Assembly: GCA_036172245.1 (NCBI GenBank)
Contig: JAYWIR010000147.1
Span: 44,242 to 64,241 of the forward strand
DNA from: Raillietiella orientalis
Lineage: Eukaryota
DNA: 20,000 nucleotides
Reading direction: 5' to 3'
The position numbers were made by a program, and so were the translations under genes. Shown in pieces: positions 1 to 20,000 of the stretch (position 1 is the stretch's first letter; every line of letters starts with the position of its first letter). A model generated the notes under the pieces. It saw nothing but the letters and a program-made list of their open reading frames with translations, did no database searches and had not been told where the DNA came from.

Positions 1-1
1 T

Positions 2-1464
2 GCGGCGTGGGCAGGGAAGCAGGACTGGGTCCGTTTGGGGATCCCCACGGTGAGGTACTTCAAGTAACTTGGTGTGCCGTTGGGGGACTACTCCCCTGCG
101 GAAGCGTGGTCCGGCTGCCTCCAAAAAGTAGAGACGGCTATCGGCCTGTTCCGAGGCGGCAGGTTTTTCCTGCCTGATCGGGCCGCGGTTTGGAACACGC
201 TTGTGGCTCCTTTCCTCCGCCTCCTGCTTTTTGTTTGCCTTCCTACAGAGAGAATGAAAAAGCGGAAGAAAGGACCTCCTCCGTATCGCCCTTTGAGGCA
301 ACGGGAGGGCCCGAGTCCGCCTAAAGGACTTGTGCGTTCCACGTCGGGATGGTGGTCTGGGCTTCCTGACGCTGGAGCGGCTGAAGCTTCAGTTCCAGTT
401 CCGCTTGTCGGCACTCGTTCCAGAGTTGTGGTGAACCTGTTGGTGCTTACCTGCACGTCTCCTTCTCCAGCAAGCCACCGGCAAGACGGGACCGACGTCG
501 TTTCTTGCACTCCGTCGCCGCGTCATCCGATGGGGACTCCACCTACGGAGGGTGGCTGCGCTGTATCCCAAAAACCCAGGATTGCCCACCTGTCGCCCTT
601 TGAACGGTAGTGCCTGGCTGCAGGAAACCGTTCGAACGTGGGGACAGTTCGGCATGCAACGCTCCCAACAGGAACGAAAGTTCCTGTTTGGGGGTTACAG
701 AAGTTGCACGCTTCGCGAGATCCTGGAGGATCCAAAGAAGAGAGCGTGGGCAGAAGAACCCCCTCGCTGCTGCGCTGTCCTCCCTAGTGGAACATCAGGA
801 CAGCGATGTTGCGGCGAAGTGGGAGGTTAGAATAAAAATCTCCGGGAAGGAGAAGAAGCAGAGAGAGTGGAAGACGGGCCAGCTAACTGATGCTGCGACC
901 CCGAGTTCGCCTCCCAATGGACTTCGGCGCTGGGGCGCGCTGCTAGATGTTCCCATTGAACATCTGAAGTTGCCCCCGGTGCTCATGAACACTTCCGCCC
1001 TTTCCTTAAAATGGCAGAAGTCGGCTCTCCTGTTGCAGAACTGGGGACTCCCCTGCAACTCCCGCCGACGCCACTGGACCTGGGGAGCGGTGGACCCCAA
1101 TTGCGTCAGGTGTGGGGAACGTAAGTCGCTCTTCCACCTGCTAGTGGATTGTTGCCCTTCGGCCCTTTGGTTTCGCTTTGCCGCGGCCATCGGAATCCCC
1201 TGCGGCAACCCCAGGGACGCACTGAAAGCCCTCTTCGTTGCCTACGCCCTTCGGCCTGCGGCCTCGTTGGCAGCTTTGTGCTGCCTACGCAGGATCGTCA
1301 CCGCTTGGAGCGAGGCTACGGGAGGACAACGCGACCAGGGTGCCTTTTAGCCAGCCTCATAGTTCCTGAGGAGGGCGTCCCGATGGCCCCACCTGGATCC
1401 AGTAATACAGAAGGAGCTTGCCGGCATCCTGCAAAGGATGCAACGGCACCACCAGCAACTGTGA
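2..1464 (+). pseudogene. ORF2 C-terminal part (end of RT/thumb and zf-RVT-like zinc finger), disrupted
   Basis: FK*LGVPLG (decayed KYLG motif, TAA at 65-67). RVRLKDLCVPRRDGGLG from 312 matches the L1-clade LxxPxxxGGLG motif. CVRCGERKSLFHLLVDC at ~1102-1152. Several frameshifts and stops. The end aligns with the 4745-5080 ORF. Confidence 0.9.
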
Positions 1465-1646
1465 TCCCTTCCCTTACCCTCCCAACTTTTCTTTTCTTTT
1501 TTGTTTTGTTTTTTGTTTTTCCCCTTTCCCCCGGCTGCCGTGGTGGACCGTACCGTTCTGCGAACCGGTGACCTGGCAGGTTCTGTGTTTCTTCGTGCGT
1601 GGCTGGAGCAATGGTCCAGCCACCACACGTCTTTGTAAAAGTTTAT

Positions 1647-1682
1647 TTTACAATAAACGCCCCGGCGAAATCCGGGTGAAAA
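1647..1682 (+). terminator. 3'-end signal: AATAAA, GC hairpin and short A tail
   Basis: tttacAATAAAcgccccggcgaaatccgggtgAAAA. Confidence 0.75.
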
Positions 1683-3017
1683 TCGAATGCTTTGTGCAAA
1701 TTGACCGCGACGGCAAAGGCTCCCTACGAGTCCGTCCTTTCTTCTGCATGATGTTCTTGGTCAGAGGGGAGCGCGAGGCTCCCTTGACCATCCTGAGCAA
1801 CGCTTTGTCGCTACTGCTACGATGACCCGGTCGTCGCTGCTCACGCTGGGCTCGCAATTTTGTTGCGGCGTCGACGTTCGCGCGGCGGCGGGTTGAACAG
1901 CTGGCGTGACGTCACATCGCATCCATCCGTCAGCGGAGCGAGTATCGATCGCCGGCACGCGTTTGATGGCCACGCTGCACGCTATGATTGTTGGGCGTGG
2001 CGCGACCTTCCCCTTGCCCTTCACCACTTTCGCCTGTGCGGGCGCGGTAGTTTTAATAATTTTTACTTTGCTGGTGACCAGCTGCCAGCCTTCCTCGTCG
2101 GCAGTCTTTTCCGAGAGCTCCTGTACCTAGTCCTTTTCCAACTGCGCGACTTTTGTCGTAGCCGACGGCTGATCCCCTTTTGTGGGGCTGATTGCTGTTT
2201 TTGCCTTACCTTCCTTCTTTTGCGTAATTTCCGGCGTTGAAGCGACGTTCATCGGGCAGATCACTTTAGTGTGGCCCTTTGCGCCGCACGTTGGGCAAAC
2301 TGCTTTCGGGCACCGCTTTTTCAAATGCCCGAACGTCTTACAACCTCCACAAATATTAGGTTTCCCCACAAACCAAATGTCGACGAACTTGTCGCCAATT
2401 TGGAGCTTGTGGGGAAGCTGTAAGCTTTCTCGAAGCGTCACGAGCGCGCCTACTCGCCCACTAAATGCACCATTCACTCCGAAGGTGTTATGCTTTCTCC
2501 ACATCGCGAAAACGCTAGCGAATTTTTCGAGTTCAGCGTGGATGGCGTTCTCATCCATCCTCACTGTTGTCCCTGTTAGGTGGACCACAATGGAGTGGTC
2601 CACCGTGTGTGGGAGTAAATTCCTGCCATCAAATTGTACGGGCGTGCTGAGCATCTTGTGGGTAAGAGCTGCATCCTTGCAGATGAGCTCCGCCAACTGC
2701 CCTCCGCTCCGTATAAAGAGGCAAAGAATTTCATGGTCGGCAATGCCCATCTTTTTGATGGCATTGCCGAACTTTCGCGCCCTTAACGGGGAATATAAAT
2801 TGCCTACCTTGTACAGGAGGGCCGGATTGTAGCCCTCCTGCATGTAGGATTGTATTTCGGCGGCGACATCGGGCGTTTCCGCCGCTGCCACCGCGCTCCA
2901 GGCCCTCGTCATAGTGGCGGGTTCAGAAGAAGTGGTGGAGCGTGATCCCACCTCCTTTGGCTTGGAAGGCGCGGTCTTCCCGCCTCCCTCACCTGAAACT
3001 GCGGCGTTCACAGGCAT
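1683..3017 (-). pseudogene. ORF1 gag-like nucleic-acid-binding protein (predicted RRM-like region and 2 CCHC zinc knuckles), truncated
   Basis: CGGCKTFGHLKKRC and CPTCGAKGHTKVIC (CX2CX4HX4C). The TAG at 2127-2129 is internal because the same frame continues through DEEGWQLV and CSVAIKRVPAID to 1761. Confidence 0.9.
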
Positions 3018-3110
3018 TTCTGCCTGTCAACTGCCGCGAAACACACACGAAACACCAGAGAGAAAAACTGCTTATCCACGGAGCGCACAACAATTGCCTC
3101 CGCCGTTCGC
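1683..3110 (-). mobile_element. Family-1 LINE, 5' portion (segment 2): 5'UTR and ORF1 broken near its C-terminus
   Basis: GT-rich 5'UTR ending ggcagaaATGcctg, the same start context as 18193-18206, followed by ORF1. The right boundary lies somewhere in ~3095-3150. Confidence 0.88.
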
Positions 3111-3155
3111 CTCCTCCTAAGGCGCTACTAGGCAACCGCATCTGCGGCTGCCTAG

Positions 3156-5080
3156 CCTAAGCGTCGATGCATTCGGCCTGGGGAAGCGCTGGGTGCCTTG
3201 ACGATCGTGGTCGATCTCCGCAAGGCGTTCGATTGCATAAATCACGATCTCCTGCTGGAGCTCCTCAAACGTCTCGGTCTACCCGTGCACCTCGTCGCGT
3301 ATTTGCGCGCTTGCTGGCGCCACGAGCTCATTTCCATTTCTTTCAGCGGCTGCCACGTGTACGGCGTGCAGGAGCGGCGGGGCATCAGGCAGGGCGACAG
3401 CCTCAGTCCACTGCTCTTTAGCACCTACTTTGAGTTGGTGCTGAGGGCGTACAGGCTGACGCTGGCCAACCTGCCGAGCTCTTGTCCAGGAACGCCGTCC
3501 GTGGCGGCCTATGCTAACGACTTTCTTCTACTCTTACCCATGACCACACCGGTGTCCAGTCTTGAGGATTTCTTAAAGCTGATACGCCGGGGAGCGGGCA
3601 TGAACGTAAACCGGAGCAAGAGCGTGATCGTACCTATTGGTGCGGCGTGGCAGGGGCAGTTCGACTGGATCCGCCTGGAGTTTCCAACCGCTTCCTCCAT
3701 GCAATATCTACGCGTTCCGCTAGGGAACATCAGACCAGTGGAAGTGTGGTCGGAGTGCCTTCGGAAGGCTTTGAATGCCCTGTGCCCGTTCCACCATGGC
3801 AGGTTCGTCCTGCCGGAGCGGGCCACGATATGGAACAGCTTCGTTGCCTCCCTTTTGCGCCCTTTTCTTTTTGTTTGCCCGCCTCCCTACTCGGCCAAGC
3901 TTCAGGAGCACAGCCTGTTCAGGAACGCTCTGTGGGGACCTGCGAGGTCCAGGATACGCCTCAAAGACTTAACGGCTTCGCGTCGGGATGCTATCTTAGG
4001 CAAGCTGACGCAGGAGAGAATCGAGCTGCAGGTGCAGCTTCGAATGTTGGCCCTGTGCGCCAACCTTTGGTCCACTCCGTGGTGCGTTCCTGCGCGCCTG
4101 CTTCTGCGGCGCTGCACAGGCAGCGATGGACTACTGTCGCTGCGGCCGCCCACGGAGCGCCCCACGAGAAGCTTCGGTTTCCCCCTGAAACCGCTGTACC
4201 GGCTCCTGGAAGCCCAGGAATGGATGTCCTGCCGCCCAACGAACTTTCAAGCCTGGCAGCAGGAACCGTTGCATGGCTGGGCAAAGCATCAGGATGTTTT
4301 CCTCCTGGAACTCCGTTGCGCTCACCTCTCCCCGTACTGCACGGTGGATGAGGTGTGCAACAGCCAGGAGAAGTGGACCCGCCTGGCCGTCACCCCCCTC
4401 GAAGACGCACTGTCAGCCCTCAGGGCAAGAGATGACAGCCTGGAACCGGCGAGATGGGAATTCGCCTGCACCTTTGCAGGAACAACACGACCTAATGGTG
4501 GCTGAAAGACTTGCGAGCTGGCAGACGCCGCCACGCCTCGCCTCATCTCGAAGGGACTTCTTCGGTGGAGGGAACACTTGAGTGTGCCCCATGAAGAACT
4601 TGTGGTCCCTCTCTCCTGTTTGAACACTTCGGTGTTCCCCCTCTCGTGGAAGCAGGACGTCATCATGCTGGTGCATTGGGATTTTCTCTCCAACCAGCTG
4701 ACGAACTGTGTTTCCGGGGGAGTTGTCTCCCCAAACTGTAAGCGGTGTGGGGAAGTGGTAACGCTCCCGCACCTCCACCTGGACTGCGGTGCTCTTCTAG
4801 GACTCTGGCGGAGGCTGGTTTCAGCTTTCCTGAACCAGGGGGACACCGCGAGGGACTTGAAGCGTCGCTTCTTCTCGCCAGGCGGCCTGTCTTGGGTGCT
4901 GTCGTTGCAACCGTGTGTTGCACCCGCAACATCGTAAAGGCCCATAGTGAGTTGGAGAAGCTGGCCATCGTTCGTCAGCCCACGGCATTAGCCACTACAA
5001 ACATGTTGTCGGCTGGCGAGTGGGCTTATCTGCTACAGGGCGTAAGGAGAGAGATGACCGTCATCCATCGCCGGTTTTGA
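3156..5080 (+). pseudogene. ORF2 reverse transcriptase (subdomains 3-7) and C-terminal zinc finger, inactivated
   Basis: VDLRKAFD, RGIRQGDSLSPLLF, YAND in place of catalytic YADD (3510-3521), GMNVNRSKS, QYLRVPLG and CKRCGEVVTLPHLHLDC. Stops or frameshifts near 4505 and 4937. Confidence 0.95.
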
Positions 5081-5265
5081 AAGAAGGAACGGACTCAATA
5101 AAGACCCCTGTCTCCTGCCCTCCATATTTTAATTTTTTTATAGTAGTGTATTTGTGGTCCCTTCCCTCCCGTTCCGGACTTTCGGCATACCGACCTGCGT
5201 GTCGGGGATCCCACCTCCTTCGTCTCTTGTTTTCCCCTTTGTCCAGGAACACTGTTCCCGGATAG

Positions 5266-5301
5266 TTTACAATAAACGCCCCGGCGCACTTGGGTGATAA
5301 A
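5266..5301 (+). terminator. 3'-end signal: AATAAA, GC hairpin and short A-rich tail
   Basis: tttacAATAAAcgccccggcgcacttgggtgATAAA. Confidence 0.75.
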
Positions 5302-5490
5302 CAGCCGACCCCCCGCGATCGTCTCTATTTCCTGGGCGTCTCCCGCGGTGATAACGTGGATCTCCTGCAGCAGGGCCAGGTCGAAGTCACGCAGGGTGCC
5401 GGCCGTATCTCGTCTGTTGCCGTCGTCGCGCAGCCCGTTTACGTTCCAACTGGCCACGCGGATCCTAGGGCGACAGGCGAGCCCAGGTTT
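5302..5490 (-). pseudogene. ORF2 APE endonuclease N-terminus (fragment)
   Basis: RIRVASWNVNGL and LALLQEIH, the first two APE motifs. The start codon position reads AAA and aligns with the ATG at 19840. Confidence 0.92.
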
Positions 5491-7181
5491 TATTCCTGGG
5501 AAATTGGTTCTGCAGCGTCCGCCACCTGTTAGGGCGGGACGATAGGTGGAGGGGGAGGGTCAGGTGCTGGAGGCACCTGGTCCCCCTCTTCCATGGGTAA
5601 CGGCGCGTCAGCCGGTTCACCCTTAGGTGGGGTCGTGCCTCCCTGTTCTCCCTGCTCCATGAGCATGGCCTGCTCGACGGCTTCCGTACGTGGGAATTTC
5701 AACTCCTGGTTTCTCACGCTGGCGTCAGCTTCCGGCTTCTCGTCCTCGCTCGTGGAGGGGAGGCGCCTCCTCGGTTTTTGGGACTTCCGTCCCGTCTTCC
5801 GGGTGGGTGCCTTTGAGGAGTGGGATGCACTTCCGGCCCCCAGGTCGTACACACTTTCGGGGTCCTTCTTGGGCGGAGCAGCCCTGCGCACTGCATTGCG
5901 TGAGGGGTTCTCACGCACGCCCAGAGTGACCGCGAGCTCCTCCGCTGCCTTCCCGAAGGCGGCGTCCTCGCCGTCGGAGTGCGCGTCGCCCGGCTCACCC
6001 TCTGTTTACACAGTGGGTTCGTCGTCCCGAACCTCGGGCGCGGCGGAAACGGCGAGGGGAGGCTCGTCGCCCCGGGTGGCAACCTCAGGAACGCTTACGC
6101 GATTCAGTGCTACCGAGCACTCCTGGAGTTTTTTTGACAGCCGCGCGGCTTTATTCTTTTTGCTGGCCGTGTTCGTTTTCTCCGTTTTCTTTAGTGGTTC
6201 TTTCACCACTTGTTCCTCCTTCCTGGCCTTTATCAGTTGCCTTCCCTCTTCCACTCCCGCGTCTTCCGCGGTTTCATCCAATGACGCCTGGGTGAGAGGA
6301 AGAGGAGATGGCGGCTCGGGCCGGCCAGTTTCTCGCTTAGGTCTTTTGACCTTGTTGATTTTTTTGGCCTGCGCCTTTTTGGCAGCAGGTGGCAACGGGG
6401 TAGGGCGTTTAGGGCACACACGACGCACGTGTCCCTTAACCCCGCACAAGTGGCACTCAATGTTCGGGCAACGCTTGCGCAAGTGCCCTACTGCATTGCA
6501 GTAGTCACAATAGCGGGGTTTCCCCACGTACCAGAGGTCGACGGATTCTTTCGCGACTTCCAGTTTGTGAGGCAACCTAGCACTTTCATTGACAGTGACA
6601 TGCGCTGCAGCCTGGCCTCCAAAATGGCTAGAAAGCCTTCGAAGATGGTGGGCTTTGGCCATAACGCGTGTACATCTCCGTATTTCATCAATTCGTAATT
6701 CACCGCCGAGCGCGTCATCCGATTTGTGATTCCGGTTAGATGGACCACTACGAAGCGGTCCATGATAACCGGTAGGATTTTCCGGCCATCCACATTCAGC
6801 GGGGTGTTCATCAGGCGCTGTGCTAAGGCTACATCTTTGCAGACGACCTCCACGCGCTGCCCCTCGCTGAGTACGGCGAGGCCGTCAAGATCCTCTTCTC
6901 TTACAGGAACGTCCTGTAGTGCCTTACTGAAGGCTTGGGCGGTGCGACCATCAAACAGGGGTCCTATTTTGAAAACCAGAGATGGTGTTATATCCTGATG
7001 CCCTGTAAGCCGCTTGCTCCGCCTAGGTTTCCGCGCTCGGCGCGGCCACCATGGTGCTCCACTTCCTCGGCGTTGGCGAAGATGATTCCGAAACGGATGC
7101 CCCTTATCCAGTAAGCCGTCGGGAAGGACTATCCTTTCTCACGCCTACCTTTATCGTGGTGTCCTCTGGCAGCGATGCCAT
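5490..7181 (-). pseudogene. ORF1 gag-like protein with 2 CCHC knuckles, full length but frameshifted
   Basis: Assembled from the 6488-6853, 6006-6662 and 5529-5918 ORFs. CDYCNAVGHLRKRC and CHLCGVKGHVRRVC. It ends PISQE* at TAA 5492-5490, matching PLSQS* at 19838-19840. Confidence 0.9.
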
Positions 7182-7270
7182 CGGACACCAACGATGTGAA
7201 AAAACACACACTTTCCAAGAAGAAACCGCTTCCCGGTACTTGTTGACGGAGAAACCGAAAAACACGTCCT

Positions 7271-7870
7271 TCCGTAACGAAAGGGCGTATTTGCACGCCC
7301 ATCGTTTTTCGAGGACCCCTGACATCCGTCGCTTGACAGAGTACAAAGCCGAGGCCGAGCGTCAAGCCTGGCAATCCAAGCCGCCCAGCGTGCTGGACGA
7401 CCTACACCAGGAATACTCGGACCCGGCATGGATACGTCGCTTCGTGCGTTAATTTTACTTCTCCCTTCACGCCAGGGTACCTGCGGAGTGGGACGTGTCG
7501 CGGAGCTTTCTCCCAAATGGAGCCTTGGCCATAGGGAAGGGAGAGAAAGAAAGCTTCGACGAGCCTTTTACGACCGGAGAAATCATCACCGCTATTAAAA
7601 AGCTTAAGAGGCGTAAGGCGCCAGGGTAGGACGGCCTGCCGGCGGAGTTCTTAAAGAGCTTCGCGTCAGATCTGACCCCCCTGGTGCTCCAATTGACACG
7701 GCTGATACGAAACGAAGGCGATGTTCCCGCCTCGTTTTGGTAAGCCAGAGTGAGGCTCCGTCCTAAGGGAGGAGACCTTAGGAAATTGAGCAACTAACGT
7801 TCGATCACGATTGTGAACACGGACGCCAAGTTGCTGGCTGGACTGTGGGCTGCGCGGCTGGGACAGATGG
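7271..7870 (+). pseudogene. Family-1 ORF2 internal fragment (segment 5): linker to RT subdomain 2
   Basis: RNERAYL...AERQAWQS, KAPG*DGLPAEF, LRPKGGDLRKLSN*RSITIVNTDAKLLA. Four in-frame stops. Homologous to 8592-7997 and to segment 10. Confidence 0.93.
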
Positions 7871-7871
7871 A

Positions 7872-9355
7872 ATTCCCGGTGCGCATCAAGCCCATTTTGT
7901 GTTAAAGCTCTAGCCAGGTGGAAGAGTGGAACAGGTTCGCCTCTCTTCTCCGCCTCGGAACAGCATACGTCTTTTCCGGGCTGATGGACGCGTTTGCAAC
8001 CCGTTCCAAGCGCTCAGCCCAAACCTTAGCTATCAACGTGGCATCCGCATTCACTATTGTGATGAAACGCCAGTTGTTCATGCCCCTCAGATATCCTTCC
8101 TTAGGGAGAAGCCGCACCTTTGCCGAACGAAACGAGGCGAGAACGTCACCTGTATCGCGTATCAGCAAGGTGAGTTGATGTACCAGGGGGGTAAGCTCAG
8201 CCGCGAAAGTCTGATAAAACTCCGCGGACAGGCCGTCCTCCCGTGGAGCCTTTCGTCTCTTGAGCTTTCCGATGGCCGAGATGATCTCGCCCATCGTAAA
8301 AGACTCGTCGAGGGACTTTTTCTCCTCTTCCCCGATCGCAGGAGCGCCTTCCGGAAGCAGGATTCGTGAGAAATCCCGCTCGGAAGGCGTTCTTGCGTAC
8401 AGGGAGGAGTAAAAACGCCGCAGCAAACCGCGGATCTGAGCGGGTGCCGAATGCTCCTGGCCCTGATCGCCCAGCAAGCTGGCCGATCCTGACTGCCAGG
8501 CTTGCCTCTCGGCACCCGCTTTGTATTCCGCCAGCCTGCAAATGTCGGGGGTCCTGGCGTAACGACGAGCCTGCAGATAGGCTCGTTCGTTACGTACCCA
8601 GTCCCCAAATCCCGAAGGTAGGCGGTGCTGAGGGAACTGGTCGCAGAACTTCTGGACCGACCGTTTGAAACGATCCCAATCCTGAAGTGTCTGCATCCTA
8701 AAGCTCCGTATAAACGTGCGGAGATGTTCCATCGCGTCCGGGAGCTTCAGCCAGTCCCTTGGCAAACGCCACGCTGACGAGAGGGGGCCCCTGTCGCGCG
8801 GATGGATTTCAATCACGATTGGTCGATGGTCGGACAACTCGCACGGCACCTTGCAGCGCCTGCCCACACGAGTGCACAGGTGCTTCTCAAGGAACACGTG
8901 ATCGACGTTCTTCTCCATCCCTGGTACACTGGCCAACAAATTACAAGTGTGCACCGCCGCGCACACCTCGTTGACCAGGTCCCGCTCGTGATTCGGCCAT
9001 CCGGTTTCAGACGAACGTTGAAATCGCCTGCAACCAGATGAGCATTCCGCACGCCTGCCTTGGTCAACCAGTCGCGATGGAAGGCAAGGACAAATTCTTT
9101 CCTGGCCCTCCTGTTCGTCAGGTCCGCTCCGCTCGGGGCGTACACGTTCATAACGATCAGGTCGATCGAGTCGGGCCAGCTGAGAGTCAGCTGGCCGACA
9201 CGACCGTGATCGTTGCACCGCACGCCCCGAGCCGCGGCCTCGACGGCTGGCCGAAGCAGGTAGGCGACACCGCAACTTTTCGCTATCTGACTTCTGTACC
9301 ATAGCCGCCCTCCGGAGATGCGTTCGATCTCCTGCGCTCGTACAGTGCAGAGGTG
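7872..9355 (-). pseudogene. Family-1 ORF2 internal fragment (segment 6): most of APE, linker and RT subdomains 0-2a
   Basis: GVAYLL, NVYAP and AGDFN in the 8813-9223 frame. After a frameshift: VDHVF, SDHRPI, FYSSLY, KAPREDGLSAEFY and NWRFITIVNAD. Confidence 0.95.
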
Positions 9356-9476
9356 TTCACGCGTCTATCAGCGTTAACGATCGGGCATCTTTGTGCCTGT
9401 GTTTTCGCTCGCACTTGTATATTCTAGTGCAATCTGCAAAGTAGCATAGTGCTACAAGTCCAGTACACAGGAGAGT

Positions 9477-10699
9477 GTGAAGGAGCAAGCCACTGGATGC
9501 ACTTCAACTGTACTTGAAGTGGCCGCATCTTCCGTAATGGTTTCCTCACCCCCGATAAGGAGTTACGCCGCCGTTACCTCCCAAAGACCAGAACCCTGCG
9601 ATGCGGAGTTCCAGGCATATGTGTCATCTGGAAACATGCCTGCACTCCGTTATAAGATCAGTGGGCCCCTTAACGGGAGGATCAAGCGTGAGCTCAATGA
9701 TGAGCTCGTCCGGATTGGCGTTCGCGAGGAGGAACTCCTTGCCATAATGCCTGCTGGCAGGATGGAATATACGAAGATTCGGTGCAAGAACGCAGCATTC
9801 GTGCAGCGCCTTCTCCGTACGCCGTTGACCATCAATTGCAAGGTAGTCCTTCCTACCGCGATGGAAGACTCTTTTCTCGTTCAATTGTGCGACATCGAAC
9901 CGGAAATCTCCGACCGCGATGTCGTAAGCGTGCTGCCGATGTTCGCCACCGTGCACGCCCTGTGGAGGAGGCCGAACCCTTCGAAAGATTTCTCCTTTCT
10001 CCACATCGGACAAGCCTCCGCGCGGATCACCGTCGCCAACAGGCGTGTTGTGCCTGAGCAGCTGCAGGTGAACGGCACGGTCGTTCACCTGTGTTTCATA
10101 GGTTAGACTCGCGCGTGAGTGCAGTGCGGCAATGATGAGCACCTAATCAAAGGGTGCCCATCTCCGAGATGCCGCTATTGCAAAGATTCCGGGCACGAAA
10201 TGAAAAAGTGCCCTGTACTTGCAAGAAAAGCAGCCGAAGCGGAAATTCGTCGGGTTCAAGAGACCACTGCACCAAAAGCCGCAGTGGCAAATAAAAAACG
10301 TCGTCCGCAGAAACTCGGAAAAAGCCACGAGCGATCCGCGGATAAAAAGAAAGCATCCCCGCCCGCAATGCCTAGAAAGGGGAAAGTCACGGCGGGGAAG
10401 CCAATTAAAAAGGGGCGCGTGGGTTTGCCGCGTGCCGTGCCCTCCCTCGCTGCCAAACTTGCAGGCACCTTTCCGAGCCAGGAACCAGCAAATCTCCGTA
10501 ACACCCTGGAGGGAAAGGTAGGCAAACAGGATGATCGCAACAGTGCGAAGACTTCTTGCTTCGTTCCGTTGTCCCTTCGGAGTTCCGGACAGCCCCACTG
10601 CAGCGCAGGCCCCTCTGCAAAGGCTACGAAATCCGTAAAAAGCAGCGTTGCGACAAGGAAAACACACTGCGTGCAGGCGCCTCATCGCCCACTCGGCAG
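9477..10699 (+). pseudogene. Divergent family-1-related ORF1 (segment 7, leader from ~9360), interrupted at ~10700
   Basis: SYAAV, GVREEELLA, QRLLRTPL and FATVHALW align with the other ORF1 copies. Knuckles *VQCGNDEHLIKGC and CRYCKDSGHEMKKC. In-frame TAG at 10104 and TGA at 10116. The start codon is uncertain (GTG 9477 or ATG 9537). Confidence 0.9.
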
Positions 10700-10737
10700 T
10701 TTTCCCCAAGTCCTATGAGGGGAGGTGTAAATTTATT
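10700..10737 (-). terminator. Family-2 3'-end signal: AATAAA, hairpin and short A tail
   Basis: The minus strand reads AATAAAtttacaccTCCCCtcataggacttGGGGAaaa. Confidence 0.65.
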
Positions 10738-10830
10738 TTTCTAAAATTTTTCTATAAAAACATTCACACTACAATCTCATCCATACCATTTGCACATTTT
10801 TTTTTTTACCACTATGAAGTCCTTGGGTTC

Positions 10831-13800
10831 TCACAAGTTCTGCACTAAGGATGGGTTTTTAGATGTTTGCTCCCGGGAGTCGTTCTCTATCCTCTTCAGG
10901 ATGAATCGATACCTCCAGGCTTGGATTTTTCCGCAATTCCTAATCCCGATTTCCCTCTTCAGGAGCCCTTGTAGAATCTCCATCTGTGTTGCGACTCTCC
11001 TGGATATTCTCTTACTTCTCCACCGCACAAGTATGGCGGTGATGAAGAGAGCGATGGTCATCGTCACCATGGGATTGTAACGGAACATTACCATCCCCCT
11101 GAAACATCCCGGCGAAGATCTCCATTACGGACCTGGTGGTGAGTCCCATGATCCTTTTCAGGATCAGCCAGTCATGAAGCAATGTGGGACACGTCAAGAC
11201 GTGAAGTCTCGTGTCGATGTCTCCACATGCTGTGCAGTCTCGATCTTCCCTTATTGCGGTGTAGTGCTGCAATCGGGACCCACTCTGGATTCCTGCATGA
11301 TAAAATATCAGGATGTCATCCTGGGTGCCCGGTGGAAGGTCACTCCTACAGAGCGTCGTGCCAATCGCTAACAGGTTGATCCGGTCCCTCCCGTAGCGAA
11401 TGGCGGCTTCCTGCAGGGCACTAATATCACTGTGTTCTTCTTGAATTATTCTTCGGAGGTTTGTTTTGTTAACCATGGACCACGCAAAGTCGTTGTGGTT
11501 GAACCACACTTCGCGAGTCATGTGGGTAAACCTTCCTAACACCATCTCTATATACCTAAGTATACGAGTGTGATGTAGGTACATTCCTCGTTCCCACTCC
11601 TGGATTCGTTCAAGGGTAGCTCTGGACCGCTGCTGGATCCAGCTTCTCGTGTCCGGCGGGACAGGAAGCATCCAAGGGATCACCAGGATGGACTCGTCCT
11701 GCCAGAGTTCGCTACTTCTCGGCACGATCTCGATTTTTTGCTTTCGCACCTGCCGTTGCTTCCTCGTCCAGGTTGGGTCGATTTTTTTCCATTCGCCTGC
11801 TCGGCCTAGCAGCGCAGTCATCAGGCCTTTCTAGTTGTTTAACAAGAACGCGTAGGCTCTGTGTGCAGCATACGGCCAGTCAACCCAGTGAGTGGCAATG
11901 TCCAGGATGTGTCGCGTATCCATGATTTCTATGGAGTGTGCAAGCGAATTCATCGCGGAACTGTCTTCTTTCCTGGGACGACACAGGGGTTTTAGGCGGA
12001 CTCTTGGGCGATAGTGGCCCCACAGTGTTTTCCTCTGCAGCTTGTCGAACTCCCTCGTGGTGTCCTTGTTCATCCTCGCGAAGGCCGCCCCGAAGAGCAC
12101 TTTTGGAAGGAGTACTCCGTTTTATATGTTGGCCTTGCGCTTCATTCCAAGGTCAGTTCGGGTGTACTTGGCAGCTTCCTTGGCCGTTTTCCCTAGGATC
12201 TCGGTCCACAATAGCTTCGACACGGAGACGTCTCCAATGTAGACACCCAGGTACTTAGCCTTGTCCACCGTTCGGAATCCTCTCCCCGCTAGAGCGGAAA
12301 GATCGAGGATTCCAACGGGCAAGAGTTGGCTTTTCTGAGCGTTGATCTTTTGACCCAGGCATTGATCCATCAGGTCTACCACATCCAGAAACGCTTGTTG
12401 ATTTCTCTCTACCTTGATAAAGGAGAGTAGATCATCAGCGTATGCCAGATGGGTAGACGCTAGCCATCGATTTTTATGCCTTGGAGTCGTCCGCTTTTCT
12501 CGATAAAGGACGACAACGCCTCCATGTAGATGAAGAACAGCATCGGACTAAGCGAATCGGAATGTCGGACTCCCCGTTCCATCCGGATTGCTGCCGTCTC
12601 CTGGCCGTTGATTTTGATTCGGCAGCACTGGTTCTGGAGTACCACCCTCACGAAGTTGCTGAAGTGTTCCGGAAGGCCTAGCTTCTCCAAAACCTTCAGC
12701 AGCATCCCATGGCCGATGGAGTCGAAAGCCTTCTCCATGTCAGTGAACACAAGCGCCACGTTCTCGCCGACGTATCGGCTGAGTCCGACGGTGGCCTTGG
12801 CACACTTGACATTGTCCGACATGTGACGTCCAGGGACTGCACACGTTTGGACATGAGAGATGAGCTTCGTCATGACCTTGCCTAAGCGGTTGGACAAGAT
12901 CTTCGCCAACCACTTGGCATCCGAGTTCAGGATCGAGATTGGCATCCATTGAGCGACCTGCGTGAGGTCGTTTCCCTTTAACAACAATCTCATCCGACTC
13001 TCGTAGAACGACTGTGGAAGTCTTGTTTCTTCGCGGATGCAGAGGGTCAAGTGGTGGAGCAAACACAGGTAGGCATGCAGGTACCGCTGATAGTGAGTGA
13101 TGGGTACGCTGAAAGGGCCCGCTGCCGCGTCCTTGCGTAGTTGACCAAACGCAGTCTTCACCTCGTCTTCGGAGAATTCCGCCTCCAGTCTGTTCAGCTG
13201 GAGATCGTCGGTCCTCTTCTCGGGGTAGCTCAGAAAGGCCTGTTGGTTAGAGCGACAGAGATGTTGTCGCGTAAAGTGTTCCGTGTAATGCCTGTGAAAG
13301 GCATCCACGATGTCCTCAGACGACTGTCGCTTTTGACCGTCGTACTGGATGCAGAAGATATCTGTTGCCAGATTTCTATTCTCCAGCACGCCGACTTCCC
13401 CTTTGATGTTCTTGAAGACGTACCGACCCTCGTACTGAACAAAGTACTTTGAGAGTGAGCGATCTTGGAGGTTCAGCTCCCGGTACGCCTCCTGCCTCAA
13501 GCGCCTATCTCCGAACTGCATGTTTGCAAACAGGTGTATCCTGTGTTTCAGGCTGTCCCAGTCGGCGACTCTTCGGATTGTTGTTTCCTTCAGAATTGTC
13601 TCCAGGACAGCCAGATGTCCGGGATGGGTGTCGAACTAGGCGGCCTTGCTGATGAGCGCCGCCCTGGTTCCTTGCCTCCGTCGAAGGATTCTCCGTTCTT
13701 AGGGAAGACCGCACCAGGGGGTGATCAGACACCGTGGTAATAATGTCTCGAAAACCCTGGATGCGATTCCCAAGTTCGGTGCTGTGCAGGACGTGGTCGA

Positions 13801-14362
13801 TCGGCTTGTGACTTGCAGTTTGCCACACCAGTCCGAACTCTTCGGATAACCGCCGATACGCCGTCCTTCCTCTGGCGTCTTCGTAGTGAGAGATCTCATC
13901 CAATATGTTGAGATAGCCAGCAACAATCACGACTTCCTTGAAAGCAACCTTTTCACGGAGTGCTGCATGCAGCGCCTCCGCACAACGATGTTTTAGCCTG
14001 TGCGGCCCGTACACGTTCAACAGGATGAGGTGAACAGTAGCGGACCAGGCCAGTCGCACGCCGATGATTCGTCCGGGCTGGGGACAGAACACTTCCAGAA
14101 TAGTGGGGGCTAAGTGGTTCTTGATTAGGACCGCCACACCCTGCGTGTTCCGTTCTCCCTCGCTGACAAGCATCTGCCCGTTTAATCGCCGTTCCATTTG
14201 GTGACGAATCTCGAGACCCATCTTGTGGGTCTCCTGCAGGCACACTATGTGTTGTTGTGCGATGGTCCGCACAATCCTTTTTTTTTTTCCCTGCTCGACC
14301 ACACCGTTCACATTCCAGGAGGCGATGGTTAGCCTCCTGGTTGTCGATAGGGAAGAGGCCAT
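10831..14362 (-). pseudogene. Family-2 ORF2: APE endonuclease, reverse transcriptase and C-terminal zinc finger
   Basis: TIASWNVNG, VCLQETH, GVAVLI, NVYGP, AGYLN (decayed GDFN), IDHV, SDHPLV, WMPISILNSDAK, DMEKAFD, RGVRHSDSLSP, YADD (12442-12431), KYLGVYI and CTACGDIDTRLHVLTC. Multiple frameshifts and stops. Confidence 0.96.
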
Positions 14363-16230
14363 AAAAGGGGAAGTCGTATTTCTTGGCCCTCCTGAGCTTC
14401 TTCTGTCTGAGAGAACGTGCTCTTCCAGACAATGAAGAAGCAGCGGGCTTCTCGCTGCCGGCGTCACTCTCTGCTCCGGTGAGGTTGGTTACTTCCGCCT
14501 CCTCCGTAGAGTGTTCCGCTCGCGCGATCAATTTTCGAGATAGCGCCTCTATCTCGACCTTGGCGCAGAAGTTCGCCTTTACGTCGAGAAGCTGTTCCTC
14601 TAGCTTTTCGCGCTCGGTGACCTCCACAACCTTTTTGACCTTCTCCTGTGCATTGCAGATCTTCTGCAAGATTTTCTCCTGCTGGGGACCGCTCTGCACC
14701 TCTAGGACTTCATTAGCCAGTGATGCCAGCTCCTCCGTAGATTGCAGAGCCTTCTGCGACACAAGAGTGGCTTCGGCTATTTCTTTTTCCGCGCCTTTCT
14801 TCGCTACCTCCATCTTCTCGCCTTCTTGCTCTTCACCTTCCAGGATAAGAGGGGTTTCTTGCTCCTTGACGAGCGTCCTCCTCTTTCCTTTCTTCCCTAC
14901 CTGTATGAAGCCGTCTTCCGATACCGGGACGGCTTCTTTCACCTTCTTCGGCCTTGCTGCCTTTTGAGGATGTTCCGCCTCCTTAGTGTTTCTCTCTCTC
15001 ACGGGACAGAGACAACGAATCCTTCTGCAGTTCGCAAACTCCGGACAGCTCCATTTGACATGTCCGTGTTTCTTGCAGAAGAAGCACACCTCCGGCTGCG
15101 GGCAGTTTCGGACTTGATGTCCTACTTTGCCGCAGCGGAAACAACGACACGTTGGGCAAGCGCCGGCCCTGTGGCCGAACTGCTTGCACCCGGTTTAGAA
15201 TATCGGCTGTTGCCGGTAACGCACGTTCACTCCCTGGGATTGTTCGTCAAGAACGGCTAATCCAGGGATCACAGCTCCCTCTTTCAACTTCATTTTGGCG
15301 ATCATGTCGCCAGAAAATATATTTCCAGAGAAGTTCTGGAATTCAAGGTCCAGAACTTCCCCATACTGCTCCAAAAATTTCCACACCGTTAGTTGCGGTG
15401 TGAGGATGGAGATGCCGTTCAGAAAGACGGTTGTGTATGGCATCTCGCCAACACCACAAACCATCCTCCCTTGTATATTGATCCCCTTCTGGATCAATCG
15501 CTCTCTAATATTTTCACAGTCTGTGAAGACTGTGAACCCATTATTTGCCGGTAAGATCGCCTGTATGCGATCAAAATTGATATCCGTTTTATCGAGGCAC
15601 AGATACACCTCCCTGATATCATTAAATTTCATCAGCCCAGTCTTGAAAATGATAAGCTTTACATTCGGCCTTAATTTTACGATTGGCCGATCCACCTTTT
15701 CGCCTTTGCCGCATAGCGGCTTCCCGAATTTTCTTGGTGGGTGGACGCTCTCTTGTCCAGCCGCCACCGACTTATAGGAAAAGGGCTGCGACGCCGCAGC
15801 GGAACAAGATGGCGTCTCGCCCTTAGCCGCATGGACGCCCGCGGGTCCTGCCTGGTACGCCGCCGCCGCAAACGAAACCCTCGACGTCGCCACCATTGCC
15901 CCCGCGGGCGGCACCCTCGGCATCGCCGACGCAGGCGCGACCTTCCCCGCCGCGGGCACGACCTCCGCCGTCATCGCCGCGGGCACGACCCTTGGCATCG
16001 CCGCTGCCAGCGTAGCAAAGCCCGCCGCGGGCGCGATCCTCGGCATGCCAGCCACCGCCTCGCCGTTGCCGCACGTTACCTCCATGGCTTCCATGAAGGA
16101 CGACGGTCTCTCCGCTCTTCCTCTAGGTGCCTGCATCCTGGCAGCTGATCTTGCTGCACGGGACGACTGCAGGTCTTCCGCCGTGATCTCCTTGGCGTTT
16201 CTTTTGTAGTTTCGTCTGGAAACTGTCCAT
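14361..16230 (-). pseudogene. Family-2 ORF1: predicted RRM-like region, 3 CCHC knuckles and a Glu/Lys-rich tail
   Basis: Reading through the TAA at 15197-15195 gives *TGCKQFGHRAGAC, CFRCGKVGHQVRNC and CFFCKKHGHVKWSC in one frame. The start is either ATG 16230 (needs a frameshift) or ATG 16136. The 3' end is inferred at the ORF2 start. Confidence 0.88.
15900..16050 (-). repeat. Degenerate coding tandem repeat in the family-2 ORF1 N-terminus
   Basis: MPRIAPAA, MPRVVPAA and MPRVPPAG, plus partial units VVPAA and VAPAS. The plus strand shows recurring gcggg...c(t/c)ggcat units. Confidence 0.7.
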
Positions 16231-16368
16231 CTCTGGGCACACACGAGCACAATCAACTGATTAGGTCGTCGTGCGCACAACACTTCCAGCCGAGAAGCAA
16301 GTTCACCGAATCGGCAGGACAGGAGCAATCTCCCGACTGTCAAGTAGGTGACTCCGTTGTTGTTTTTT

Positions 16369-16839
16369 AAAGGCGTAGCGAAAGCTGCGCCCCTAGAGAA
16401 CGCAGCGAAAATCCCGGAGGTTTCCGCAACTGCTGTCGCGGAAGCCACCGAAAATCGCGAAGGCGAATGGAAGGTTGTGGAGAGGAGGAAAGAAAAATCT
16501 TCCAAAAAAGCTTCGCAACATCCATTTGTGATCTCTTCCAAAGGAAAAAGCAGTCGCGCGAAAACGAAAACACGCGCGCCTTGTTACTCTTCCCAGGAAA
16601 AAGCCAGCGCCTTCATCGCGTGCAAGTCCGCTTCTCTGACCGCCGAGAAGTCCTTTACGGTGCAATCGGACGGACGCAAGCGCACGTCGATCGTGCGAGC
16701 ATCAGACTCTGCAAAGGAGTCCGATAGCGTAGCTCAACGACGCGTTACTCGCGCGGGAGCGAGCGCCCGCAGAGCTGAAGCCCTGAGGCGTGACACACTT
16801 GCCGCGGAAGGGCGAGTGCTCATCCCGGAACTGCAGTAA
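16369..16839 (+). pseudogene. Probable ORF1 C-terminal fragment (segment 7'), possibly the continuation of segment 7
   Basis: Open K/A/S/E-rich frame containing EGEWKVVERRK, which resembles EEGWQLVTSK and EPGWQKVDPKK in the other ORF1 tails. There is no folded-domain motif, so support is modest. Confidence 0.55.
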
Positions 16840-16843
16840 GAAA

Positions 16844-16970
16844 ACGTGTTTTTTCGGTGCTGTCGAAAACCTTTTTTTTATTTGCGAGTGTTTGCAGTAT
16901 TTTGTGGAGCGGTTGTTCATGGGCAGCAATGCCCGAGGACACCGCCAACACGGCGGAGGGGGGCCAGCAA
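16844..16970 (+). mobile_element. Family-1 LINE 5'-terminal stub (segment 9): 5'UTR and first codons of ORF1
   Basis: ACGTGTTTTTTCGG (16844-16857) matches the segment 4 terminus. ggcagcaATGcccgaggacacc (ATG 16929) matches the ORF1 start contexts of segments 2, 4 and 11. Confidence 0.75.
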
Positions 16971-16974
16971 GCCT

Positions 16975-18122
16975 CGTCCTCCCAACCAACTCAGAGTAGG
17001 TGCTGAAGCCCAGGGGACTGAAGCTATCTCCCTGCCTATGCGGCGCCGTACCGGCACACCATACACCTTGTGACCGCTGAAAGAGACGGTAATCATCGAA
17101 TTTCGCGAGCAAGAGCGCAGGTAGGAAATCAGGGAGGGTGGCAAGCCTATGCGACCCAGGAGCTCCAAGAAGAGTTCCTGGTTCTACACAGTCGAACGCC
17201 TTGTAGAGATCGACTGCGAGCGCTAAGGTCTCCTTTCCCGCCCGGGGGTCCCTTCCCAGCCCGGCTGGCGGCACCAATGTGGGTTTGCCGACTATCCCTA
17301 TCCCTTTCTTCTTTCTTCTTTGCAGGTGCACCCATGTGCTTGCGAGGAAGAGGTTGGCATCCATTCTTCGCCCGGCAACAGCATAAGTCTGCTCCGTGCT
17401 AATTACGGATTCTGCCACCTGCCCCAGACGCGAAGCGCATAGCCCTGCTATCTGCTTGGCGTCCGTATTCACCATCGTGATCGGACGCCAGTGCTTTAAA
17501 TCCTTGAGATTTCCCCCTTTCGGAAAGAGCCTCACTCTGGCTGACCGAAACGTGGCGGGAACAACGCCTTCGTCACGGATCACCCTGATCAACTTAAGCA
17601 GCAGGGGTGCCAGCTCTTCCGCCTAGCTCTGAAAAAACTCCGCGGGCAAGCCGTCTTCCCCTGGAGCTTTCCACCTCTTGATCCTTTTGATACCGTCGAG
17701 AGTTTCGCCGGTGGTAAAAGGCTCAACGAGGCTTTCGATCTCCTCCTCCCCTATTGCAGGGGCGCCATCCGGAATCAAGCGTCCAGAGTCGTTTCGATCC
17801 AAGAGCTCCCTGGCGTAAAGGGAGAAATAGAAACTCCGCATGAGATGCCGTACCGACGCCGGGAACCAACATTCCCGGCCCTGGTCGCCGAGCAAGCTGG
17901 CCGACCCGGATTGCCAGGCTTGGCGTTCGGCCCCGGCTCGGTACTCGGCCAGGCGACGGACATTAGGGGTTCTCTCGTAATTACAAGCCTGTGAATAGGC
18001 CCGATGGTTGCAAGGACCCTCGCCGAATTTGGGGGGCAGGCGGTCCAGGGGGAAGTGCTTGCAGAACTCCCGGACTGATTCCTTAAAAAGGTCCCAGTCC
18101 TGGAGATTCCGGAGCGTCGAGC
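16975..18122 (-). pseudogene. Family-1 ORF2 internal fragment (segment 10): linker to RT subdomain 4
   Basis: LQDWDLFK, KAPGEDGLPAEFF, HWRPITMVNTDAK, VDLYKAFD and QGDSFSPLGFSTY. TAG at 17625-17623 and frameshifts. Confidence 0.94.
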
Positions 18123-18199
18123 GGACGTGTCTTTTCAAGGCTCCTGAGTTTCATTTCCGTTGGTGCTTTTGCGTGGTGTGGGTTGAGGATTAGGCAGAA

Positions 18200-19840
18200 A
18201 TGCCTGATACCACCACCGGTGAAGATCCGGGGGCGATGACCTCATTACCCCGGAGCAGATGGAGGTGTAGGCTTCCGCATCAGTGGAGGCTCCCGCCAGC
18301 ACGGATGCGCCCCCGGCCTTACTCAGAGCTTGGATCGCCGTGGCTGCGGAACCTATGCCAGAGGCTATGGCGGAAATGCGCGCTTACCTGGAGGAGGGGT
18401 ATAACCCACCCCTTCTATATAAGGTAGGCGGTCTATATTCTCCCGAGAACGCGCGCGCCTTCTCACAGGCGATGCGCGTTCTCGGCGTACAGAAAGAGGA
18501 GCTTCTGGCTATGTCCGTCAGAAGCGGGGGTCAATTTGTGGAAGTTATCTGCAAGGAGGCAACTCTTGCGCAGAGACTTCTGCGAACCCCCGTAAGTATG
18601 GGCAGCCGGAGGCTTCTCCCAATAACTGAAGACCGGTCGGTGATCATTCACCTGACCGGTATCACGTTCCGGATGACGAAGGAGGCCGTCCGGAACGAAT
18701 TAGAAAAATTTGCAACTGTCCACGCGCTGTGGGTCAAGCCTACTCCTTTTGTCGATTACGACGGGGTGCTTGGCGGCTGGGTGCAGCGCGAGTGACGGTT
18801 CGCGAAGGATGTGAGTTACCCCACAAACTCACTGTCAACGGTGAATCCGTTGACGTGTGGTACGTGGGGGAACCCAAGTTTTGCGGCTGCTGCAGCAGCT
18901 TCGGTCACCTTAAAATGAGGTGTCCGAGCGTGCAGTGCCGGCAATGCAAGCAAGCGAGGCACATCCGTCTGCTGTGTCCACAAAACATAGTCTGCGCCGT
19001 GTCCGCAAAAAACGCGAGAAAGCACGCGGCTAAAAAAAGAAAGAAGCTGGCAGCTCGTACTGCTGCTAAGGAGGTCACCTCCGCCTCCAAGGCGAAAGCC
19101 AGCCCCGAGGCCTTGGCGAAAAAAGTCGAAAAGGTCGAGGGCGAGGGTCAAGAGCCAGGGTGGCAGAAGGTCGACCCCAAGAAAAACTCCCATAAGAAGG
19201 GAAAGAACCTGGCAAAACAAAGCGAAACCGCTCCGCGATGCGATAAAACCAAAAGCTCTGCGTCTTCGTAAAGCAGATTCCCGCCATCGACGAATGCGGC
19301 GCTAAAGAACTCGCTGCTGTCCCTGCTCTACCCTATGTTGACAAAGTCAACAAGGAGGGGAGCGAGGCGGCGGCGTCCGTCATCGAGCCCACGCTCGATG
19401 ATGTCGCCTTCGAGCGCGCCGCGGAAGAACTGGCTGCCTCGTTGCAGCCGGTTGCCCCCAAGGCTGGCAAGAAGGCCGTCAGTCGTCCGGCTTCCCCTCA
19501 GGAGTCGGCCACTTCCGACCCCGAGGTGAAGGCCGGAAACACAGCATCCATCTCCGCGGCACCCCGCAGAAAGGCAGGACGAAAGTCCACAATGCCCCGG
19601 AAGATCGTCTCCCCCGACGAAGGGGAAGAGATGGCTTCCGGCTGCGAGGGTGCGATGAGCGTAAGAAACTCCCTGGACCAGTCGCCCGAGAGAATTTCAC
19701 GCTCGGACACGGAGGGGATGAAGGGAATGGAGGCCGAACAGGTACCTCAGGCGCCTGAAGAGGCCTCCGTCCTCGTACCAATGGACCTCTCCTACACCTG
19801 CCCCGCGGCAGGTGGCGCGACGCCACTTTCCCAGTCATAA
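18200..19840 (+). pseudogene. ORF1 gag-like protein with 2 CCHC knuckles, full length but frameshifted
   Basis: Assembled from the 18200, 18283, 18729 and 19442 ORFs. CGCCSSFGHLKMRC and CRQCKQARHIRLLC. Closely similar to the segment 2 ORF1 (EGYNP.LLYKVG.LYSP). Confidence 0.92.
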
Positions 19841-19842
19841 TG
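19838..19842 (+). promoter_or_regulatory. Overlapping stop-start TAATG between ORF1 and ORF2
   Basis: ORF1 TAA (19838-19840) overlaps ORF2 ATG (19840-19842), and this ATG is in frame with WNVNG. Confidence 0.85.
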
Positions 19843-20000
19843 CCGGGAATCGCCTGTCACTGTCGACTTCTGATCGCCTGTTGGAACGTGAACGGGCTAA
19901 GCGACGACGGCAAGAGGCGTGACGTGGCCGCCACCCTGGCATCCTTCGACCTGGTGCTGCTGCATGAGATCCACATGATCTCCGCAGATCAAGCTCGGAA
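19840..20000 (+). pseudogene. ORF2 APE endonuclease N-terminus (runs off the window)
   Basis: MPGIACHCRLLIACWNVNGLSDDGKRRDVAATLASFDLVLLHEIH, translated directly from the sequence and absent from the ORF track. This part is open, but it belongs to a copy with a disrupted ORF1. Confidence 0.88.

Follow-up and report, generated by a model that had tools for sequence, protein, structure and literature searches.

We analysed a 20,000-nucleotide (nt) stretch of DNA from Raillietiella orientalis (assembly GCA_036172245.1, contig JAYWIR010000147.1, positions 44,242 to 64,241 of the forward strand), referred to here as the window and numbered from 1. It consists of 12 abutting fragments of L1-clade long interspersed nuclear elements (LINEs), whose domains comprise a first open reading frame (ORF1) with CCHC zinc knuckles, an apurinic/apyrimidinic (AP) endonuclease, a reverse transcriptase (RT) and a putative C-terminal Cys-His motif. 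Domain architecture, together with best matches that are L1-like, places the elements in the L1 clade. Pfam searches of the window revealed RT, AP-type endonuclease and zinc-knuckle domains on both strands. Eleven of the 12 pieces were recognized as LINE by Pfam, profile or homology, the exception being piece 9, a stretch of 262 nt that is only putatively LINE. DNA outside the assigned fragments amounts to about 20 nt at the junction of fragments 2 and 3 (J2) and 34 nt at that of fragments 5 and 6 (J5). The fragments follow one another in the strand order + - + - + - + - (+) + - +, the strand of piece 9 being tentative. An initial annotation had described a LINE cluster with essentially no spacer and with this same order, and the fragment map bears out both descriptions.

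The map was built from Pfam matches, six-frame self-comparison, a profile of the second open reading frame (ORF2), mapping to the protein P0062 and direct reading of the junctions. The ORF2 profile was made from 12 L1-like database proteins. P0062, a 619-amino-acid uninterrupted RT that is 68% identical to fragment 6, was the single close database relative in our searches. The analysis covers this one 20-kb window, which was picked for its strand pattern. Element A, the eighth element of the initial annotation, represents a separate family, and all other fragments are grouped as family B. The pieces, and the basis for each, are as follows.

Fragment 1, positions 1 to 1682, plus strand: 3' part of a family-B LINE, with the C-terminal part of ORF2, a putative Cys-His motif, the 3' untranslated region (UTR) and the true 3' end; it leaves the window at the left edge. 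Basis: P0062 residues 371-615 mapping to 2-734, terminal motif at 1647-1665, hairpin.
Fragment 2, positions 1683 to 3110, minus strand: family-B 5' UTR and ORF1 with zinc knuckles; the 5' end lies at about 3097-3110, and the 3' side is truncated by the 3' terminus of fragment 1. Basis: similarity of the ORF1 region at 2166-2954 to fragments 7, 12 and 4, and a start-codon context resembling those of fragments 12 and 10; positions 1683-2165 (minus strand) are assigned by frame continuity alone.
Fragment 3, positions 3113 to 5301, plus strand: starts in the linker that separates RT domains 2 and 3 and reaches a true 3' end; the coding part is almost intact. Basis: RVT_1 (E=6e-13), ORF2 profile positions 590-856 and 1087-1124, P0062 residues 218-589 with 0 stops, terminal motif at 5266-5284.
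Fragment 4, positions 5302 to 7269, minus strand: full 5' end, ORF1 and the first ~58 endonuclease codons; cut by the 3' end of fragment 3. Basis: 5' motif at 7255-7269, homology to fragment 12 in both ORF1 and the endonuclease, and a match of 5290-5463 to ORF2 profile positions 3-61.
Fragment 5, positions 7270 to 7870, plus strand: the stretch from the linker to RT domain 2, truncated at either end and in an advanced state of decay. Basis: P0062 residues 1-160 mapping to 7390-7869 (63% identity, 4 stops), the limit of homology being set by alignment to fragment 11.
Junction J5, positions 7871 to 7904, no strand: 34 nt of no assigned origin between two internal breaks, tail to tail.
Fragment 6, positions 7905 to 9356, minus strand: endonuclease codon ~45 to RT domain 2, with a 484-codon open frame. 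Basis: ORF2 profile positions 40-148, 204-296 and 390-574, P0062 residues 1-191 (67.5% identity, 0 stops).
Fragment 7, positions 9357 to 10699, plus strand: a more distant lineage of family B, represented by its full 5' end and ORF1 and interrupted by the 3' end of element A. Basis: ORF1 homology, 5' motif alignment, reading of the junction.
Element A, positions 10700 to 16579, minus strand: LINE of 5.9 kb that is present at full length and belongs to a separate family; it encodes ORF1 with a zinc knuckle, an endonuclease, an RT and a putative Cys-His motif, and it has a hairpin at its 3' end. Its reading frames are broken at about 6 places. Basis: zf-CCHC, Exo_endo_phos (profile positions 1-225 of 225, E=6e-12), RVT_1 (E=3e-16), ORF2 profile.
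Piece 9, positions 16580 to 16841, plus strand (tentative): 262 nt without homology, with an open frame like an ORF1 tail ending at 16839.
Fragment 10, positions 16842 to 16984, plus strand: 143-nt stub with the 5' end, 5' UTR and first ~20 ORF1 codons. Basis: 5' motif with 2 mismatches at 16842-16856, and 52-60% identity to fragments 2, 4 and 12 at their 5' ends.
Fragment 11, positions 16985 to 18122, minus strand: the stretch from the linker to RT domain 4, truncated at either end and decayed. Basis: RVT_1, P0062 residues 1-305; the left break is pinned by a contig of sequencing run X1 (described below) in which the RT continues beyond 16985 with different letters.
Fragment 12, positions 18123 to 20000, plus strand: complete 5' end, followed by ORF1 and the first part of the endonuclease; it leaves the window at the right edge. 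Basis: 5' motif at 18123-18137, ORF1 homology, ORF2 profile positions 3-44 at 19867-19986.

The ends of the elements are sharply defined. Three true 3' ends were found, at 1682, 5301 and 10699/10700, each consisting of a short GC hairpin followed by GA(A/T)AA (GAAAA or GATAAA). The initial annotation had placed 3' ends at ~1682, ~5301 and ~10700, and the hairpin and terminal sequence confirm all three, the first two also through a 19-nt terminal motif. This motif occurs exactly twice in the window, at 1647-1665 and 5266-5284, compared with 0.01 occurrences expected. We detected no poly(A) tail at the three visible 3' ends, which directly abut host coding sequence. Fragments 1 and 3 have the same 19 nt ahead of the hairpin, even though their coding parts share only 32-55% protein identity. 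The 3' UTR of fragment 1 also contains a T-rich 12-nt tandem repeat (2.8 copies, 1487-1519), which resembles a T-rich tract at about 5128-5145 in the 3' UTR of fragment 3. When metagenome contigs were scanned for exact copies of the 19-nt motif, two loci matched; these have 36% GC and no similarity to the window, and we dismissed them as chance matches.

At the other end of the elements, five 5' ends (7269, 9357, 16579, 16842 and 18123) share a short T-rich motif that follows two variable bases. It is located at 7255-7269(-), 9357-9371(+), 16565-16579(-), 16842-16856(+) and 18123-18137(+), and thus includes the distant family A; fragment 2 has a less precisely defined 5' end (3097-3110). All six visible 5' ends are full length, and their position at a common motif suggests mostly full-length insertion. 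The motif itself points to an internal promoter that has been conserved, or to transcription from a defined start. Of the five 5' ends placed by the initial annotation, four were upheld (~3110, ~7270, ~9357 and ~18123). The fifth, at ~16360, is not the 5' end of element A, since the 5' motif sits at 16579. Seven of the eight junction coordinates were therefore correct, and 16842 is an additional 5' end beyond that list.

A C-terminal motif of the CX2CX7HX3-4C type is a hallmark of the L1 clade, and this pattern is readable in fragment 1 and in element A. The Cys-His region gave weak ORF2-profile matches at 1048-1191, 4719-4829 and 11144-11494. The Pfam domain zf-RVT was matched in fragment 1 only, weakly and below the cut-off (E=0.039, 15 bits versus a cut-off of 27.5).

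When the ends were set against the fragment borders, 9 of the 11 junctions were found to pair one true end with an internal break in the neighbour. The strand switches at 9 of the 10 independent adjacencies (one-sided p=0.011), and antisense orientation accounts for 7 of the 8 end-to-break events (one-sided p=0.035, two-sided 0.07). The excess in strand orientation within the window is real.

Such junctions might have been created by the assembly itself, if copies of a collapsed repeat had been joined into chimeras. The sequence here consists entirely of repeats, and our check of the junctions rests on short contigs from X1, a sequencing run from a relative and not from the source, which holds 9% of the sampled words. 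X1 contigs aligned at a likeness of at least 90% gave 240 pieces, of which 18 were at 99% or above, 57 at 95-99% and 165 at 90-95%; the X1 pieces are 87-95% identical to the window (about 5-13% different). Of the 11 junctions they bridge only two, that between fragment 7 and element A, with 269 nt and 128 nt on the two sides, as well as that between element A and piece 9, where a contig runs unbroken over 16438-16831 across 16579/16580. Because they are bridged in this way, these two junctions are not assembly artefacts. Moreover, the copies share at most 72% DNA identity, so that mis-joining driven by similarity is unlikely, and the joins fall at exact element ends. We therefore consider an artefact very improbable. 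X1 contig depth is about 4-40 over most of the window and below 0.5 in 6004-8004 (5' part of fragment 4, fragment 5 and J5), from which we draw no inference.

Self-nesting of full-length LINE copies is a plausible explanation, and the simplest reading, of the nine junctions between an end and a break; we adopt it tentatively, rating it as somewhat short of probable. According to this model, the window would be a slice of an old, decaying cluster in which L1-clade LINEs integrated into resident copies of their own kind. The elements would be of the 'stringent' type, with a fixed 5' terminal motif and a 3' hairpin followed by GA(A/T)AA without poly(A), and target-primed reverse transcription would have brought in the guests at full length. 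The host sense strand continues into guest antisense sequence at each of the three visible 3' junctions, which are GC-rich sites, and each guest would therefore be antisense to its host. At the junction of fragments 3 and 4 (5301), the bases beyond the 3' end are host endonuclease codons that align with fragment 6. In the left chain, fragment 1 would lie in 2, 2 in 3, 3 in 4 and 4 in 5; in the right chain, element A and fragment 10 would lie in 7, and 7 in 6, while 12 would lie in 11. The events 1/2, 2/3, 3/4, 4/5, 7/6, A/7 and 12/11 would be antisense, and the insertion of 10 in piece 9 would be sense, provided that piece 9 belongs to fragment 7 as its tail. In support of nesting, the host fragment 5 shows far more decay than fragment 4 or the other young pieces (4 stops per 160 codons versus 0 in 563, p=0.002).

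Piece 9 is possibly the ORF1 tail of fragment 7 resuming beyond element A. When the ORF1 tail of fragment 7 was compared with 1.84 billion representatives, all 7 matches were confined to the zinc-knuckle part.

Several observations weigh against nesting. Comparison of piece 9 with the rest of the window revealed no DNA or protein similarity to the ORF1 tail of fragment 7. Two junctions, 7871-7904 (fragments 5 and 6) and 16984/16985 (fragments 10 and 11), join two internal breaks tail to tail and contain no element end; under nesting, they would have arisen from at least two later deletions or rearrangements. The proposal that fragment 11 had inserted into fragment 10 fails at the second of these, where neither fragment has an element end. 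The roughly seven antisense events and one sense event of the initial annotation agree with our 7:1 count, but the seventh antisense event is 12 into 11. Decay is also at odds with the proposed order: fragment 1, supposedly the youngest, carries 3 stops and 1 frame change in 251 codons versus 0 in 372 for fragment 3 (p=0.026), and fragment 6, the supposed outer host, has 0 stops relative to P0062. Inserted copies had been expected to be flanked by target-site duplications. Element A is the only guest with both ends visible, and we found no duplication flush with its ends; the best common word was a 13-mer, itself set off from the ends and equalled in 20 of 500 shuffles. The eight inferred insertion sites all fall within 1343-3300 of an element of about 5,400 nt, that is, in its central 36% (p=0.004). 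The sense strands are A-rich (AAAA 159 versus TTTT 94), so that the classical L1 nick preference would favour sense, not antisense, nesting. Finally, in all four head-to-head pairs (2+3, 4+5, 7+6 and 12+11), the inverted segment begins at the exact 5' end and the sense partner begins further downstream (p=0.06 under independence), an arrangement that nesting does not predict. The sequence of insertions first proposed (1 in 2, 2 in 3, 3 in 4, 4 in 5, 7 in 6 and element A in 7) is supported in part.

The arrangement of the four pairs is what would be expected if each pair were a single integration, with its 5' portion copied from a second internal primer and hence inverted. This could occur by twin priming or by a jump of the RT onto the end of another cDNA, and the units would lie inside or against one another. 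Fewer events would be needed, and strand alternation would be automatic. In element coordinates, the break of the inverted segment and the start of the sense segment are ~1417/3300 for 2+3, 1874/2594 for 4+5, 1343/1835 for 7+6 and at least 1878/2487 for 12+11. The kinship of the 5' segments (4 and 12 closer, 7 an outlier) mirrors that of their partners (5 and 11 closer, 6 an outlier), which would happen by chance in 1 of 3 cases, and decay is alike within pairs 2+3 and 7+6. Inversion of the 5' part of L1 by twin priming was reportedly described by Ostertag and Kazazian in 2001. The likeness lies in an inverted 5' segment placed head to head with a 5'-cut sense segment from downstream. In twin priming, however, the deletions or duplications are small, whereas the gaps between the two segments here range from about 490 to 1880 nt, and the frequency would far exceed the roughly one in five of human L1. 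Other features are also difficult to accommodate. Three of the four sense segments have no 3' end, and nothing resembling a duplication flanks 2+3, the sole complete unit. Decay differs between fragment 4 (about 2 breaks in about 650 codons, hand count) and fragment 5 (4 stops in 160). The ORF1 of fragment 7 is 27-34% identical in amino acids to the others, nearly as distant as that of element A, while its partner 6 is 58% identical to 11. Furthermore, the exact 3' ends abutting at 1682, 5301 and 10700 would go unexplained unless nesting were added. For these reasons, we regard inverted insertion units as an unlikely origin of the cluster.

The two internal-to-internal junctions point in another direction, namely to an old LINE-rich, heterochromatin-like region whose present order would result largely from later inversions, deletions and end-joining. 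Strands would alternate because neighbours in direct orientation were lost by recombination and inverted ones persisted, or by chance in a window chosen for its pattern. The break coordinates do cluster (6 pairs within 110 nt versus 2.7 expected, p=0.05), and the linker between RT domains 2 and 3 is broken in three copies. In this linker, the 3'-side break of fragment 6 and the 5'-side break of fragment 3 are complementary within about 30 nt (3111-3125 and 7871-7914). Both fragments have 0 stops relative to P0062, and a single inversion of about 3111-7904 would rejoin them; it is possible, judging from the alignments, that they are halves of one element split by inversion. With some 40 candidate break pairs, however, one complementary pair is not surprising. 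Fragments 4, 6 and 3 were also considered as one element, but the joining of 4 and 6 was excluded by a 42-nt overlap that is about 62% identical (hand count). Later rearrangement would further fit a decay that does not track nesting order. It would also fit the age of the cluster, seen in X1 contigs that differ by about 5-13% yet share two junctions, and in the broken frames present in every element. On the other hand, random breakage would not be expected to leave 9 of 11 junctions exactly at true element ends. The copies, at 45-72% DNA identity, are now too diverged for homologous recombination, so that survivorship would require recombination soon after insertion. Retroelement-rich islands of centromeres and heterochromatin are dense, gene-free nests of old, decayed copies; the pile examined here differs in being LINE-only, of one clade and alternating in strand. 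Taken together, we find it unlikely that rearrangement accounts for much of the order.

Returning to nesting, we considered whether the antisense bias could be a property of the elements. The initial annotation had proposed near-strict antisense nesting, a rule that eight events, a two-sided p of 0.07 and a window selected for its pattern do not sustain, and it is doubtful that the 7:1 excess is a genuine property of these elements. If it were, a hairpin-tailed, L1-like clade might prime almost only from sense-strand nicks of resident copies. New copies would then always be antisense and would build LINE-only, strand-alternating arrays, perhaps at a chromosomal landmark such as a centromere. 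They would preferentially enter the ORF1 tail, codons 45-58 of the endonuclease, the linker ahead of the RT and the one that separates RT domains 2 and 3; one possible reason for the use of sense-strand nicks is that the sense strand is exposed during transcription of resident copies. We view this mechanism as distinctly questionable. No orientation rule for nested LINEs was stated in the literature searched, which did not extend to the original Zepp papers, and this is not proof of absence.

The absence of a single sequence target, also proposed initially, holds for the three 3' junctions, which lie in different host sequences, but has to be set against the clustering of the eight insertion sites in the centre of the element. 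The hosts at the 3' junctions are broken in the ORF1 tail twice and at endonuclease codon ~58 once, and they share no common flank beyond a 7-mer in two of the three. This 7-mer, near-identical at 6 of 7 bases, ends the host sense strand before the guest at 5293-5301(-) and 10691-10699(+). We rejected it as a sense-strand nick motif: it occurs 4 times in sense and 8 times in antisense, and its presence just inside the host start in 2 of 5 cases is not significant. Hosts 4 and 6 are broken at most 13 codons apart in the endonuclease (codons 58 and 45, at 5302-5345 and 9310-9356), where they are about 62% identical; one break adjoins a guest 3' end and the other a guest 5' end. These near-coincident breaks could be due to a preferred target or to a long (~40 nt) staggered cut. 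Rfam and tRNA scans of the window were negative for RNA genes that could have served as insertion targets.

The window contains more diversity than one amplified family would. Same-region copies of family B share 45-57% DNA identity in ORF1 and 67-72% in the linker and RT, and by this measure family B is several old lineages rather than a single family. Element A is 24-35% identical to family B in amino acids, and at least five deeply diverged lineages are mixed in the window. The best named protein matches were L1-like RTs with AP endonuclease and zf-RVT from vertebrates, arthropods, plants, an oomycete and Mucor, at 24-34% identity, and placement in a protein atlas led to generic animal RT clusters. 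Base composition is uniform, with 56% G+C throughout the window and 52-60% in every fragment. Over the whole window, CpG is not depleted (observed/expected 0.97) and TpA is (0.56); the old repeats lack methylation-driven CpG decay, which speaks against a vertebrate as host. Open frames of 200-323 codons were also noted antisense to LINE reading frames, at 5533-6504(+), 2173-2832(+) and 14365-14967(+). They look like by-products of G+C-rich, stop-poor sequence.

The Tx1 group consists of target-specific L1-clade elements, and in target-specific LINEs a sequence-specific nick fixes the orientation relative to the target. The elements described here resemble Tx1, and also TRAS and SART, in having a defined 3' end without a long poly(A) and a zinc-knuckle ORF1. 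TRAS and SART, R1-clade elements of Bombyx telomeres, enter the same repeat in opposite orientations (PMC10088271). In contrast, no single target sequence was evident among the three 3' junctions in our window.

By analogy, the window may represent a Zepp-like self-nesting LINE cluster of new, diverse families. Zepp in Chlorella and Coccomyxa and ZeppL in Chlamydomonas are L1-clade LINEs that insert into existing copies and form localised, LINE-dominated clusters (PMC8226300, PMC3446292, PMC9940879). The likeness is one of cluster behaviour: here too, a LINE-dominated cluster would have grown by insertion into the elements' own copies. Zepp and ZeppL are further characterised by a single cluster on each chromosome. 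According to PMC8226300, which cites Higashiyama 1997, Zepp arrays are tandem and consist mostly of 3' ends owing to 5' truncation. Our window instead contains six full-length 5' ends and three visible 3' ends. It also differs in mixing at least five lineages, whereas Chlamydomonas has the single family ZeppL-1_cRei, and in elements that lack a poly(A) tail.

If the antisense bias were true genome-wide, it would amount to a strand-specific rule of LINE self-targeting and would place limits on how the endonuclease and the RNA-protein particle locate a target. Such a rule would also account for the growth of LINE-only arrays, which have been proposed as centromeres in some green algae, without collapse via direct-repeat recombination. 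Should no real bias exist, the window would be an old retrotransposon nest of an ordinary kind, which would still yield several new L1-clade families with exact 5' and 3' ends defined.

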